This document shows positions 1 to 26,702 of a stretch of DNA of 27,230 nt, in pieces. A model generated the notes under the pieces. The model was not told the origin of the DNA, ran no database searches, and saw only the letters and a list, made by a program, of their open reading frames with translations. Source of the DNA: Candidatus Omnitrophota bacterium (GTDB taxonomy: Bacteria; Omnitrophota; Gorgyraeia; Gygaellales; Profunditerraquicolaceae); NCBI GenBank assembly GCA_028687525.1, contig JAQTZX010000001.1, positions 1-27,230 of the forward strand, read 5' to 3'. Both the position numbers and the translations under genes were made by a program. Numbering within the stretch: the stretch's first letter is position 1; each line of letters begins with the position of its first letter.

Positions 1-72
1 CTTCAGATTCGCTCCGTATATATTCCCAGCTACGGTTGCGCTGTTCTCTACCGTATTGTCCTGAATGGTCAC
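1..72 (-). pseudogene. In-frame continuation of the large gene beyond the TAG at 73-75 (VTIQDNTVENSATVAGNIYGANLK), open to the window edge
   Basis: Manual translation of 72..1. It completes a 33-aa repeat unit exactly in register with earlier units such as GTEVVSIKDNSVNGNDALE-GNVYAVNLK. Confidence 0.85.
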
Positions 73-1194
73 CTATTCCGTACCTTCAATCTTCGCCCCT
101 TCAGCGTTCATTCCTATAATGTTCCCTTTTCCGCTGTAGCTATCGGTAACCTTATTCGCCTCTATGGTCACGGTCTTACCGCCAATCTGTGCGGAAGCCA
201 GGTTGACTCCCATTATATTGCCTTCCTGAGTTGCGCTCCCGGAAACGGTATTATCCTTAATAACCACGGTGTCGCCGGCAATAATCGCCTTTTCAGCATT
301 CACACCCACGATAGTACCACTCAAAGTGACACCATCAATTACCTTGTTATTTTCTATAATAACGGTTTTGCCGTCCAAATCTACGCCGGTCAAGTCCACT
401 CCTATCACGTTGCCTTTTTCTGTACCGCTGACCTCAACCGTATTACCCCGGATTATAACAGTTTCCTCACCGTTCAGTTCCGCGTTCTTACTGTCAACCC
501 CCATGATATCACCATTGCCGCTGAAACTATTACTTACTTTGTTGCCTTCTATTACTATCGCCTTTCCATTTATCTGAGCCGCATTCACATCAACCGCCTT
601 TACATTTCCTACCAGCGTGGTACTTTCGTCAACGGTATTATCCTTGATAGAAACTACTTCAACGGCATTAATTTTTGCGCCCGCAGCGTTTACTGCCATG
701 ATATCACCTTGGCCGCTGACACTATCGTTTACTTTATTCCCCTCAATTGTAACAATCTTACCATCGATATCTGCATCCTTCAGATTAACCGCATAAACAT
801 TACCCTCAAGAGCATCATTACCGTTCACGGAATTATCTTTTATGCTAACCACTTCCGTACCTTTGATAATCGCATTTTCCGCATTTACCGCAATGATATC
901 CCCTCTACCGCTGGCGCTGTTTATAACCTGATTGCCTTCTATAACCACGGTCTTGCCTTCGATATCCGCGCCGTTCAGATTAACCGCGTATATACTCCCT
1001 TCCACCGCTTTGCTGTCCTCAACCGCATTATCTTTAATGATCAGGGAATCCAATCCCTGGAATGTCACGCCTTCATCGAAATTAACCGCTTCAACTTCAC
1101 CCTTCTCGCTCACGCTGTTCGTCACAACATTACCTTCTATGACGACCTTGCCGGATATATTCCCGTTCTTGAAATTAACCGCGCTTATATCGCC
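1..1194 (-). repeat. Alternating 32/33-aa beta-helix-type repeats (G[ND]IxAVNxxxAxIxGxxVxIxxNxV)
   Basis: About 12 units visible in the translation, diverged at DNA level. Confidence 0.85.
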
Positions 1195-4100
1195 CTGTTC
1201 ACTCCTGCTTTTATCTACGGTATTCCCCACCAACTCAGCGCCATCACCCGCTCCCGCATAAAGATTGATCCCCACATCTCCTTGGACGCTCTTGCCGGAA
1301 ATATAATTCCCATTGATTTTACCTACCAAAACACCATTCACATTAATACCAACATCTCCCTCTCCGGACAATTCCGTGAGTTTGTTTCCTTCGATATCAC
1401 TCTTACCAAGCGTGTAAATACCCTGCCCTCCAGAAATCTCATTTTTGGTAATCGTATTATCCTGTCCTTCATCTATTATAGAAAACCCGGTATACCCCGA
1501 GAATTCATTATTTACGATTCTATTATCCGTCGATTCCTCATCCATATAAATTCCGGCCGCATCCCCGCTTCCGGCCAGTTTATTGGCCTCAATGATGTTA
1601 TCCGAAGACCCGGTAAGAGAAATGCCGTTTTCGGATTCCGAAATAGAATTACCGGTAATATCGTTACCATCGGAATCGACCAGAGCAATAGCCGTTTTGA
1701 AATTCTCAACCCTGTTTTCTCCCACGTAGGTATCTGTTGTGTCTCTCAGCGTTATTCCCGTGCCTTCGCCGTTACCCTCCTGCCCGTTATGGCCGACGCC
1801 CGCGCTTTCAACACCAATCAAAGTTATCTGGAATGTGCCCAGATTATCCTGCCGGTTCTCGTTACCGTTATAGTGGATAGGCAAACATACATTGGCAATA
1901 TTGCCCAATCCTACAACGAATACCTCCGTAGGATCTTCCTCGGAACGCACAAAATTGTTAAACCAGACTATATCGTTCTTACCGATACGATCAGCCTGTT
2001 CTTCCTCGGAAAGACCGTACCAGTCAGTTATCAGAAACATATTCTTGACCCCGATATTACTATCCTTAATATCGGAATCGAGAAAATCCACCCCGTTCAA
2101 ACGATACAGATTTTCACCCAGGAAATTGCAATCGCGGCATTTAAAAGCGCCGTTGTTATAAACATACAAATCTTCATTAAAAGTAACCCCGGCGTGAGAT
2201 CCTTCTTCCGGAGTCCAAACGCCGAACGACAACTTGCTTCCGTTTTCTACAACCGCAGTAACGGGCTTGTCGAACTCCCGGTCAGTTACTGAAACGTCCT
2301 TTCCGCTCTTGGCATATACCAGAATGCAAGATCCCAGATCGTAAATGGCGCTATTGGCTCCGACATCTTCCTTTGACACCGTCCTCTCTTTCACTCCCCG
2401 CTCAAGCGTGTCATAGATTTCTTCGTCTTCCACCATTTCCGTGATTTTTTGTGAACAGCTGGCCGCCCGTGATTCATCATCTTCAATTGCAGTCTCCTCG
2501 CCGCTTCCGGCAACCAAACAATTAATGCCGCTTGCCAGATTTTCATAATGATTACCGCCGTTCAATGCACCTAATTCATGGCCTAAGCCGTATACGATAT
2601 CTCCATAGGTCGCATTCTGGGCGAAAGTATCGGTTATAACTATGTCGTGACTAGTAGGATCCACGGCCATGCCGAAATCCATCTCACCTGCTTCAAGATT
2701 AAGAACAGTCATATGAGCAGGGTCCACACCTAAAAACTTAGAATCAAAAGCCATTGCGTTATTGAAAGATTCGGCACTATCCGGCAGAACAGTATCTACT
2801 GAAGACAAACTGGCGCCCGGGACATAATTTTTGTAGCTGTTCCAGCTTATTTCATTACCACTCATGCCGGGATCTGAAATGGGGGAGAGGGAGCCTAAAG
2901 CCACGGGGCTTATAAATGCGCTCCCTCCGAGGATCGATAATGATGACGGATTGTAAGAAAAACTATCATACACAGTACAATCAAAAATATTCGCGGGAGA
3001 AGGCGGCGTGTATGTATATGTAAAAGAAGGCGCCGTCATACTTGTATAATCGGGAAGCCAATCGGATGTCGTCGGAATGCTTACGGCCGGGCTTGAAGAA
3101 ACACTTGCGGGCTCTGCAGAATAAGTATCCCCTGAATCCCAATAGCCGTCGCTATACATGGTACCGTCGCCGCCGTAATATGCATCTCCGCTGCTGGAGG
3201 AATCCCCGCTGCCAGCCGTAGAAGTATTGCTTGTCTCGGAAGCACTGCTGCCGGAATCACCGCTGGTAACCGCAGTACCCCAGCTTACCCCGCCCATAGA
3301 ACCGCCGTCTCCGGCTGACGCCGAAGCCATGTCACCCCAACTCTCTGAACCCCAGATATTCCTTAATATATCTTCGGATATTTCACTTCCCATGGACTTG
3401 TCCGCTTCTCCAACCAAAGCCTTTACAACCGTATCATCGGTTAAATCATATTTAGACTTAAACTCATCCCTGGACAAAGATTCGCCGTTATCCATGATCG
3501 TGCCGGTCTCGGCATCATAGGTTACATAATGGCCCGTACCGTCGGCGGTTTCCACATAAATAATCGCGTTATCCCGGAGGCTGTTGAGGTCAGAAACGCT
3601 CATTTCTCTTGCATAGGTTCCGGTTACCTGCTGTAACCCATACATTGAGGTTTCATATTTGCCGTTTGAGGTATTTAATCTTGAGTACTGTTTGAGGAGA
3701 GATACTGCTTCTTCGTTAGATATGCCTAAATAAGAGGATAAAGCTTGGGCGGCGCAATTAGCTTCTTCTGTTCCAGGCCCGCGAATAGGCTGACTAAAAT
3801 AATCGTTATGGATTCTATTAGGAGTTTGATTAGAATCGGAAAGCTTTGATGTTGCTTGGTTGCTTGTTACTTTTGAGCTTGATACGGTTATTGCTGCATT
3901 CGATGATACGGTTTGATCTTTGGAAGGACAACAGAAAGAGGGTTTTCTTTCCGTTGATGCCTTTGGAGGACCGGTTGGGGGCTGAGTCTTCCATAGATTC
4001 TCTATCTTATCATCGGTATTCTCTATTATAGAATAACTCTCTTTTATATTTGTATTCTCAATATCTGATAGTACGCCGACATTATCATTCTGGGTCTTAT

Positions 4101-25387: not shown

Positions 25388-25412
25388 ATACGGGTGCAAT
25401 TATGGAGGCAAA

Positions 25413-26702
25413 ATGAATTCAAGAAAAATGTATCTCTTAATAGGGGCGTTCATTCTCTTCTGGATAGTCTTTATCTCCTGGGGAATGTTCAAAACAAACA
25501 TCAAACTGGCGCAGGAAAAACTCCTGCCGCAGTTCAATAAAGGCGCCAAAGAAGAAATTAAGCCGGGAGGACAACCGGCAGGCCCGGGAGGCGGCGAACA
25601 GGGAAAAACCTCCGAAGCGCCCCGGGAGGGAAAGAAGCTCACCGACCTGATGCCGCCGGAAGAACCTCCTCCTTTGATGGTCCGCGTTTTCAAAGTCAAA
25701 CCCGTAAACTTCCAGGATAACCTCCCGGTAATGGGAACGGTAAAAGGAAAAACAGAGATCCCGCTTAAATTCGAAGTTTCCGGGGTGATAAACAAGATCA
25801 ATTTCCGCGAAGGGGAAAAGATCAAAAAAGGAGATGTGATCGCCTGTATCGACCCCAAAGATGTCCAGTTGAAATACGTGTACGCCAAGAATAAATTCAA
25901 TTCCGCCCAGGCCTCCGCAAATTCCGCAAAAAAAAGGCTGGAGGTATTTCAAAAGTTATATGACGCTGGCGCCATCCTTAAGACAAAACTGGAAGAAATA
26001 GAACTGGAATATGAGGCGGCAAAATACCAGGTGGAAACCGCGCGCAGCGAGATGGACCTGGCCGAGAACGAATTGGGCAAAACCTGCATTGCCGCCACCA
26101 AAGAAGGAGTTATGGGACCCCGGGAAGCCGAAGAGGGACAATTCATTACCCCGCAGGATAAAGCGGGAACACTCTTTGAAATAAAAGAAGTGTTCGTTGA
26201 AGTGGGCGTCGTAGAACGGGATATCGACAAGATCAAGATCGGACAGAAAGCTAAAGTCTTTGTGGACGCCTTTCAAAACATTCCTTTTGATGGAACTGTC
26301 GCCTATATCTTCCCGGTAGTGGAAGGAAAAAGCCGCACCCTCACCATAAAAATCAAGGTGGATAATCCCGAAAGCCAGCTCTTACCGGGCATGTTCTCCC
26401 GGGCGGAAATACTGCTCCATGAAGTACAGAACGCCCTGATAGTCCCCATGACCAGCCTCTACCCCACCGGCAATATTTACCGCGCGCCGGTCATTCCCGC
26501 TGAAACATTAAGAACAGACGAGGATGGATTCCAGACCGGCAGGCTGGAAATGCGCACGGTCACGGTACCTTACAAAACCAGCGATTACGCGCAGGTTTCG
26601 GAAGGGATGAAAGCCAACGACTATATCGTCACCGAAGTCCAGGGAGAATTCAAGGACAAAGCAAAGGTAAAAATCGTAGGGACCGAAGAAGGCAGTTTTT
26701 AG
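25413..26702 (+). CDS. RND periplasmic adaptor (membrane fusion protein), 429 aa
   Basis: GGAGG RBS, N-terminal TM anchor, lipoyl half-motifs (FEVSGVINKINFREGEKIKKGDVIA; GVMGPREAEEGQFI), coiled-coil hairpin, beta-barrel and LLPGMF. Confidence 0.92.
   Translation: MNSRKMYLLIGAFILFWIVFISWGMFKTNIKLAQEKLLPQFNKGAKEEIKPGGQPAGPGGGEQGKTSEAPREGKKLTDLMPPEEPPPLMVRVFKVKPVNFQDNLPVMGTVKGKTEIPLKFEVSGVINKINFREGEKIKKGDVIACIDPKDVQLKYVYAKNKFNSAQASANSAKKRLEVFQKLYDAGAILKTKLEEIELEYEAAKYQVETARSEMDLAENELGKTCIAATKEGVMGPREAEEGQFITPQDKAGTLFEIKEVFVEVGVVERDIDKIKIGQKAKVFVDAFQNIPFDGTVAYIFPVVEGKSRTLTIKIKVDNPESQLLPGMFSRAEILLHEVQNALIVPMTSLYPTGNIYRAPVIPAETLRTDEDGFQTGRLEMRTVTVPYKTSDYAQVSEGMKANDYIVTEVQGEFKDKAKVKIVGTEEGSF

Follow-up and report, generated by a model that had tools for sequence, protein, structure and literature searches.

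A conserved giant-gene neighbourhood joined to a candidate self-regulating RND pump in Candidatus Omnitrophota

The DNA stretch considered here (the window) spans the whole of contig C97 (27,230 bp), which belongs to a Candidatus Omnitrophota genome bin of 1.31 Mb and 71% completeness. One reading, which we regard as evenly poised, is that the window combines the conserved surroundings of the 5' end of an Omnitrophota giant surface-protein gene with a tripartite pump of the resistance-nodulation-division (RND) type that is specific to the lineage and probably regulates itself. This reading is built on domain content, synteny, riboswitches responding to cyclic di-GMP (c-di-GMP) and the co-occurrence of a short DNA box with a winged helix-turn-helix (wHTH) tail on one permease, from which we infer binding, the direction of regulation, read-through and substrate.

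An initial annotation of the window had listed a TolC channel fused to a TonB C-terminal domain (TonB_C), two RND permeases, a membrane fusion protein (MFP) as adaptor, a prepilin-like protein, secreted proteins and two riboswitches, all of which were found in their places. This observation is confirmed, and its interpretation as a c-di-GMP-controlled machine exporting and displaying surface proteins is partly supported. The combination of elements is conserved across genera and families in locus comparisons and tblastn searches, and the papers searched on RND-wHTH fusions and on Omnitrophota with riboswitch, TolC or RND yielded no description of the system. The window DNA was recovered from four landfill-metagenome DNA runs, with no RNA run among those listed (no search aimed at RNA was made), and the homologues of its TolC gene (about 90 with both TonB_C and OEP domains) are annotated as Candidatus Omnitrophota. 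In the comparisons, G denotes a genome, L a fetched locus and f a family; L004 is a JGI contig, and G227 belongs to the same genus as the window.

The tripartite pump and its tethered winged helix

The pump genes and their parts, with lengths in amino acids (aa) and nucleotides (nt), are as follows.

6617..8551 (+): outer-membrane channel with signal peptide, TonB_C domain (6776-7003), linker and TolC/OEP body (7262-8533), from Pfam
17961..22040 (+): whole gene of the first permease, RND1; ACR_tran (PF00873), 816.9 bits over aa 5-1044
17961..21092 (+): RND1 permease core; D407 kept, D408 replaced by Ser, K940 replaced by Asn, R971 and T978 kept
21093..21836 (+): cytoplasmic Pro/Glu-rich tether of RND1, about 250 aa with some 3.3 copies of a 43-aa repeat, from the translation
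21837..22037 (+): C-terminal wHTH of RND1, 67 aa (aa 1293-1359), similar to HTH_DeoR and 8cil
22037..25387 (+): second permease, RND2; ACR_tran, 716 bits; start overlapping the RND1 stop by 4 nt (translational coupling)
25413..26702 (+): periplasmic adaptor (MFP); TIGR01730, 208.9 bits, cut-off 94.9

The pump would combine a TolC channel and a single adaptor with two different permeases whose genes adjoin each other, like those of MdtB and MdtC; MdtB2C is a heterotrimer. Both window permeases align end to end with the AdeJ and AcrB structures in phmmer searches and stay under every NCBIfam subfamily cut-off (the best, NF033617, gives 635 and 565 bits for RND1 and RND2 versus 1250, and CusA/CzcA 493 versus 701). 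In an alignment of 15 Omnitrophota permeases with AcrB, MdtB and MdtC (AcrB numbering), the proton relay is a variant one in both paralogues and in all 15 sequences, with D407, R971 and T978 kept, D408 replaced by N, S, A or C, and K940 replaced by N (D in one). This double replacement marks an uncharacterised RND clade and, together with the missed cut-offs, sets the pump apart from ordinary drug pumps. These genomes carry one to three further, ordinary RND/TolC sets. RND permeases handle small molecules, lipids or ions, and the substrate would most likely be small amphiphilic, lipid or ionic, taken from the periplasm or the inner membrane as by other RND pumps; the neighbouring proteins are probably not substrates.

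The wHTH tail ends RND frames of roughly 1150-1430 aa in 54 of 401 species genomes, spread over at least 18 families. The window copy scores 20.3-20.7 bits against HTH_DeoR, that is, 0.3-0.7 bits short of the cut-off of 21, and all of the 16 aligned homologous RND1 tails match this family, the best with an E-value of 2.2e-8. Among solved structures, the best match is a wHTH at the C-terminus of a Fic protein (PDB 8cil, E 3.2e-4). Residues S34, T37, A38, R40 and D41 of the tail alignment are invariant across families. The tether differs among homologues in both length and sequence, and in the window it shows identical hairpin-like matches spaced 129 nt apart.

In the channel, TonB_C (PF03544) scores 66 bits over aa 54-129 and the two OEP repeats (PF02321) score 108.7 bits. 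The TonB_C domain stands above the cut-off of TIGR01352 (64.6 bits, cut-off 27.1), and the fusion below that of TIGR01844 (73.5 bits, cut-off 225). The energy coupling first attributed to this domain is not borne out by its position, as it lies right after a cleavable-type signal peptide, N-terminal to TolC and without an inner-membrane anchor, which is not the layout of a TonB transducer, where an inner-membrane anchor coupled to ExbB/ExbD and a Pro-rich spacer come before TonB_C. In orthologous channels, the N-terminal domain is TonB_C in f1 and f14, AMIN in f13 and f18, and absent in f9, and a conventional set of ExbB, separate short TonB and TonB-dependent receptors is encoded elsewhere in these genomes. 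On these three grounds, a role as energy coupler is unlikely and periplasmic anchoring is favoured. The domain would be a periplasmic accessory, most likely an anchor to the envelope or peptidoglycan, rather than an energy transducer. At L048 (G320:C32:1-1663), five tandem TonB_C domains are encoded beside a riboswitch-led giant-gene start and zn107, a zinc-ribbon gene described below.

In the relatives L041:3711-7369, L039:9232-12869 and L059:1-3408, the adaptor gene is followed by a conserved module encoding FIST, GAF histidine kinase and REC-GGDEF response-regulator proteins, whereas the window has a fragment of a chorismate-binding enzyme on the minus strand (26650-27183) instead of this module.

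Giant gene, riboswitches and shared DNA box

The DNA box is the 8-mer CCGTATCA, with a 9-mer form ACCGTATCA; the reversed sequence served as control. The elements at the giant gene and the TolC promoter, together with the second riboswitch, are the following.

1..5682 (-): 5' part of the giant surface-protein gene; open reading frame (ORF) called at 73-5682, frame running on to base 1
5443..5682 (-): conserved 80-aa N-terminal leader of the giant protein, from N-termini aligned across 9 loci
3340..3783 (-): region resembling a C39 cysteine peptidase, aa 634-781; tblastn finds it conserved in the G362, G207 and G398 giants
5778..5809 (-): intrinsic terminator or expression platform, 12-bp stem followed by a U-run; fold z = -4.48
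5794..5908 (-): c-di-GMP-I-GGC aptamer in the giant-gene 5' leader; RF03167, 68.5 bits (cut-off 59), E 1.9e-14
3428, 3880, 3904, 5258, 5270, 5341, 5555 and 5572 (both orientations): eight exact ACCGTATCA boxes in the first 2.25 kb of the giant ORF
6524..6542 (+): candidate operator, two ACCGTATCA boxes in direct tandem, its end separated by 7 nt from the -35 of the TolC promoter downstream
6550..6578 (+): TolC promoter of sigma-70-like type, TTGACA-17-TATGCT plus an extended TG; the -35 CTTGACAAA is conserved across loci
6598..6606 (+): third ACCGTATCA box, immediately before the ribosome-binding site of TolC
9011..9146 (+): c-di-GMP-I aptamer leading the operon of YD599, a secreted protein; RF01051, 51.8 bits (cut-off 35)
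9120..9196 (+): weak terminator-like long stem followed by U8, its 5' arm inside the aptamer 9011-9146; z = -1.2, not significant alone

The transcriptional feedback through the pump suggested at first gains support from this box, on which control of TolC and of the giant gene by the pump itself would rest. Eleven of the 30 copies of ACCGTATCA in the genome (37%) fall within 3428-6606, against 4 for the reversed control. The tandem pair recurs 7-9 nt from the -35 in seven genera whose spacers are otherwise unalignable, G227, G362, L004, G207, G236 and G378 sharing the layout of the window, and similar clusters lie within the giant-gene starts of G227, G362, G398 and L004. The 8-mer is also clustered at the TolC promoters of f13, f14, f16, f18, f34 and f42. 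In tail-bearing genomes, 25 TolC loci (107 kb) contain 77 CCGTATCA hits where 3.3 are expected, 18 of these loci having at least two, whereas 21 TolC loci (75.6 kb) of tail-less genomes that bear zn107 contain one hit, with 2.3 expected, and none has two or more. The box is present in families where the zn107 profile finds few genes (0 of 5 in f13, 1 of 11 in f14, 0 of 3 in f16). Within f1, the tandem box occurs in 11 of 62 genomes and its reversed control in none; the tail was detected in 7 of these 11 and in 0 of 5 near-complete genomes lacking the tandem box. From the counts by tail and by zn107, it follows that the box tracks the RND1 tail and not the zinc-ribbon gene. The wHTH borne by RND1 probably reads the CCGTATCA box at the promoter of its own pump.

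The mechanism that we propose starts from this tail, which would bind the boxes at the TolC -35, near the TolC ribosome-binding site and within the first 2 kb of the giant gene, tying the amount or state of the pump to the transcription of TolC and of the giant gene. More tentatively, and as something possible rather than probable, the permease may act as a 'trigger transporter', in that one transporter subunit would bear the transcription factor acting on its own outer-membrane channel and on a gene some 50,000 codons long. The share of tethered wHTH able to reach the boxes would then depend on how the pump is assembled or loaded, and gating of these genes through their RNA by the c-di-GMP riboswitches would add the second layer of a two-layer switch. 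Such a tethered reach is deemed feasible in cells of about 0.2 micrometre with a tether of 100-300 aa.

The c-di-GMP control suggested at first stands as a prediction for the giant gene, where the riboswitch is in place at 8 of the 9 loci with an assembled start (the window, G227, G207, G236, G378, G398, G320 and L004/L005), whereas the second riboswitch is patchy and missing even within the genus. An Rfam search found no aptamer before the giant gene of G362. Nor does Rfam at its gathering threshold, the only one applied, report a degenerate third aptamer in the window at 8847-8964. The 5' arm of the terminator 5778-5809 is the 3' strand of the giant-gene aptamer, and this sharing leads to the prediction of an ON switch working by competition between aptamer and terminator. 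The second aptamer also precedes YD599 homologues in L004 and, as a tandem, in G277. In the proposed scheme, the ON riboswitch would gate the giant gene, and in this genome the second one would gate the YD-led operon, maybe with read-through into the pump genes, so that a rise in c-di-GMP would increase giant protein, YD proteins and pump alike. Riboswitches of the c-di-GMP-I class are very common across the phylum, 46 of 50 genomes having between 1 and 14 of them, and 5-9 GGDEF genes occur in each genome examined. In f18 and f30, a gene led by a c-di-GMP riboswitch directly follows the pump operon, after RND2 or MFP (L053:6233-6334, G121:C36:26176-26286 and L062:3909-4053); the one at L053 has a frame of more than 2078 aa, also with CCGTATCA boxes.

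The 1869-aa protein that had been taken for a large cargo is indeed encoded in the window, but its gene is the contig-truncated 5' end of a giant gene. The TAG at 73-75 that closes the called ORF is unsupported because independent contigs read TCG (position 74 is G in every independent Logan contig of three runs) and the same-genus G227 has TTG at this codon. Rather than a nonsense allele, this stop is probably an error of assembly or consensus close to where the contig ends. Frames headed by the same leader reach 59,091 aa in G207, 54,392 aa in G236, 42,913 aa in G155 and at least 5039 aa, up to the contig end, in G227. The leader is found in 18 of 401 genomes, in one or two copies each. In the window, the encoded part comprises the signal/leader, a Ser/Thr/Asn-rich region, the C39-like peptidase region and NosD/beta-helix repeats (NosD 49.9 bits), and Peptidase_C39 is precomputed on a leader-bearing 2686-aa protein of L003.

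A peptide of the leader, 'ADITVSL', was considered as a TonB box and dropped, since it is not kept in homologous leaders and is here encoded by an inverted CCGTATCA pair. A complex prediction for the TonB_C domain (aa 28-140) and the mature giant leader (aa 29-82) scored 0.00, an outcome by which binding is neither favoured nor disfavoured. The 59,091-aa frame of G207 contains a full GGDEF domain (170 bits) at G207:C2:82064-82540, and the same gene is led by a c-di-GMP riboswitch; the two could form a positive feedback loop.

The giant gene shares with the published Omnitrophota giants of the 'archaeovorin' type (West-Roberts 2023, 10.1101/2023.11.21.568195) the phylum, an N-terminal C39 region, a signal peptide, GGDEF in some members and PilZ nearby. 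Those giants were described with C39 near the N-terminus, internal GGDEF domains, PilZ neighbours and many transmembrane segments, and were linked to loci resembling type II secretion systems (T2SS). Neither that study nor a 2026 complete-genome preprint mentions riboswitches, RND or efflux, and a text search met the word 'TolC' in neither; TonB is unmentioned in the former, and the preprint notes just two 'TonB-domain' flanks.

Neighbouring genes and competing explanations

The remaining features of the window are listed below.

6079..6402 (-): zn107, a 107-aa Omnitrophota-specific protein with a four-Cys zinc ribbon and a helical basic part; single copy beside TolC in 94 of 401 genomes
8550..8683 (no strand): GGGGACGGTTC repeat element, a palindrome containing a perfect inverted repeat of 28 nt flanked by A/T runs
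9228..11027 (+): YD599, a secreted 599-aa YD-repeat-like beta-hairpin protein, syntenic in 7 loci
11102..11857 (+): T251, a secreted Thr-rich 251-aa protein with YxYD-like repeats, syntenic in G227, G362, L004 and G236; no Pfam family hit
12051-14108 and 14186-15964 (+): two paralogous acidic secreted proteins, variable accessories seen in no relative but G227 and, in part, G236
16059..16541 (+): prepilin- or pseudopilin-like protein; N-terminal methylation motif (PF07963 N_methyl, 22.5 bits, cut-off 21.2)
16585-16613: promoter-like site, 11 of 12 matches
16649-17080 (+): sp143, a periplasmic beta-rich protein, variable extra without a Pfam family
17077-17859 (+): sp260, a periplasmic beta-rich protein, always directly upstream of RND1 in f1-type loci; no Pfam or NCBIfam family

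In tblastn comparisons with the fetched loci, an order recurs in which the giant gene and zn107 run one way and TonB_C-TolC, YD599, T251, sp260, RND1-wHTH, RND2 and MFP run the opposite way. The order from giant gene to MFP is shared by G227, G362, G277, G297, G236, G207 and L004 at 45-90% identity, with the acidic paralogues, the pseudopilin gene and sp143 as variable extras, and the divergent arrangement of giant gene and TolC recurs in f1, f8, f20, f30 and f38. In f13, f14, f16, f18, f29 and f34, a plain operon TolC-MFP-RND1-wHTH-RND2 stands without adjoining YD599, giant leader or riboswitch; f9 has the same operon, its TolC being without an extra domain and its RND1 without a tail. Judged from these comparisons, the pump is older and wider than its association with the cargo-like genes. 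In families without zn107, a gene for a ROK-like regulator, recognised by eye from its N-terminal sequence, lies near the TolC operon (L049:17297-18538, L051:7047-8270, L055:2001-3194 and L060:6576-7826).

The zn107 model (pLDDT 92) shows a zinc knuckle and three helices. Foldseek found no fold match for it in the PDB, a profile search of PDB sequences gave nothing useful, no Pfam or NCBIfam family was assigned, and an Atlas search returned Omnitrophota hypothetical proteins only. The YD599 model (pLDDT 79) is a long beta-hairpin sheet whose sole significant Foldseek match is the teneurin-like protein 9ifo_A (E 4.6e-9, with a TM of 0.10, a poor global superposition). PF05593 is precomputed on 2 of 19 YD599 homologues; the window protein itself has no Pfam hit, and NCBIfam, a profile search of PDB sequences and the Atlas gave nothing useful. 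The acidic paralogue searched of the two (12048-14108) has no Pfam hit either. The pseudopilin-like protein resembles ComGE (E 5.8e-5) and was seen among relatives only in G227. The translations of seven window proteins start with a hydrophobic stretch that runs into an AxA-type site. In f9, the large ORFs lying downstream of RND2 look YD-like by eye and have no Pfam support. Between TolC and the RND cluster of G236 (L045:5693-15681) lie large signal-like proteins with MgtE_N/FliG-like domains (E 1e-14 to 2e-16), which is odd for exported proteins. The GGGGACGGTTC element has 3-15 times the depth of its flanks and many loose ends, that is, a multi-copy element in the metagenome resembling a repetitive extragenic palindrome or a miniature inverted-repeat transposable element. 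Placed after TolC, it is probably a bidirectional terminator; in G227, a long hairpin stands at the corresponding place.

According to one alternative, close to the initial interpretation, RND permeases, MFP and TolC form a dedicated machine for the export, anchoring or display of the YD or giant proteins, with TonB_C serving to grip or energise. Across genera, the cargo-like genes do keep their place between TolC and RND1; the gene directly after TolC in G207 encodes an RHS/Tc-like protein of 2694 aa with the giant-type leader; in G236, seven further large ORFs with hydrophobic N-termini lie between TolC and the RND cluster; and the tandem TonB_C domains of G320 beside zn107 and the giant gene point the same way, as does the precedent of LapA, a giant adhesin held in the TolC-like LapE under c-di-GMP control. 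However, at least six families (f9, f13, f14, f16, f29 and f34) have this pump operon by itself, with neither YD genes nor giant gene nor riboswitch next to it, and the second riboswitch is missing even in the same genus, which largely amounts to the outcome named beforehand as refuting the initial interpretation; its TonB_C is swapped for AMIN or missing, and the locus has no component of an ATP-binding cassette (ABC) or type I secretion system. The leader peptide resembling a TonB box lacks conservation and is simply what the DNA box encodes, and the giants are tied to T2SS-like loci (West-Roberts 2023, 10.1101/2023.11.21.568195). Protein export by the pump is not supported, and we consider the export machine improbable. 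Indeed, we know of no RND pump that moves proteins, which also counts against it.

The box might instead be read by another factor, zn107 or a ROK-type regulator, the RND1 tail having another role such as protein docking. This is rather unlikely: zn107 is highly basic, has a zinc knuckle and lies directly beside the boxes of the window, ROK-like regulators flank TolC in f13, f14 and f16, and the function of Fic-type C-terminal wHTH domains is poorly defined, but the box is present without a detected zn107 in f13, f16 and most of f14 and absent, save for one hit in all, from 21 zn107-bearing TolC loci. ROK genes do not adjoin TolC in f1 loci, and the invariance of the recognition helix parallels that of the box. 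That there is no functional link at all, an accessory pump merely adjoining the giant-gene start in one clade and box and riboswitches belonging to general regulons, would account for the abundance of riboswitches in the phylum, the 19 further box copies scattered through the genome, the pump without giant gene in many families and the other RND/TolC sets in these genomes. It is unlikely in view of the divergent giant/TolC arrangement recurring in five families, the eight boxes in the giant start here with like clusters in four relatives, and the riboswitch-led large genes directly after RND2 or MFP in f18 and f30.

Several points weigh against the giant gene joined to a self-regulating pump. 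Common descent confounds the association of box with tail, related genomes not being independent; the tail-less loci were sampled from about seven families, and the tail-less RND1s checked are all from f9. Family f29 (L016/L064) bears the tail, yet has no exact box, and three fragmentary genomes with the tandem box showed no tail. G227, although of the same genus, lacks the second aptamer, as do G362, G297 and G236, and the strong promoter-like site 16585-16613 could drive the pump genes independently of the second riboswitch. YD599, T251 and sp260 have long been conserved between TolC and RND1, hinting at a tie closer than co-regulation. Finally, with D408 and K940 missing in both permeases and the subfamily cut-offs missed, the substrate class and coupling ion are loosely constrained.

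Known systems and biological meaning

The pump most resembles MdtABC of E. coli and MuxABC-OpmB of P. aeruginosa, with two different RND genes back to back, one adaptor and a TolC-type channel, and the NCBIfam MdtB and MdtC models match both window permeases. However, these matches reach about 360 bits versus equivalog cut-offs of 1584-1774, and the window permeases differ by D408 replaced by N or S, K940 replaced by N, the tether and wHTH of RND1 and the TonB_C of TolC, as well as by the order RND1-RND2-MFP with TolC several kb upstream. ToxR and CadC likewise have a winged helix tethered to the inner membrane and control transcription from there, as is predicted for the window domain; unlike theirs, its anchor is a 12-transmembrane transporter subunit, and the wHTH is C-terminal, of DeoR/Fic-C type, on a disordered linker of 100-300 aa.

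The Lap system of Pseudomonas fluorescens, in which LapA sits in the TolC-like LapE under LapD/LapG, shares a giant surface protein, an adjoining TolC-family gene and c-di-GMP control. The window locus differs in having no ABC exporter, LapD or LapG, in its control by riboswitch, in the N-terminal Sec-like leader of its giant and in the many transmembrane segments of the published relatives of that giant. No ABC gene was found in the window or in the syntenic loci, and the locus is accordingly not classed as type I secretion or Lap-like, the C-terminus of the giant lying outside the assembly. Compared with c-di-GMP-I (GEMM-I) riboswitches such as Vc2, the window aptamers also score above the Rfam gathering threshold and have surface/adhesion genes as targets, whereas one copy is of the GGC variant class, one target gene is tens of thousands of codons long and the ligand is predicted from sequence.

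Omnitrophota are, to our knowledge, uncultured, ultra-small and probably predatory bacteria with the largest known bacterial genes. The locus offers testable handles on the control of such a giant gene, namely the riboswitch before it, a box of 8-9 nt common to its start and to the TolC promoter, and a co-occurring wHTH tethered to a transporter. Control of an efflux pump by a regulator that the transporter itself carries would follow a new design and, if the proposal is true, the tethered regulator would form with the riboswitches a two-layer switch for a predatory or attachment programme of Omnitrophota.

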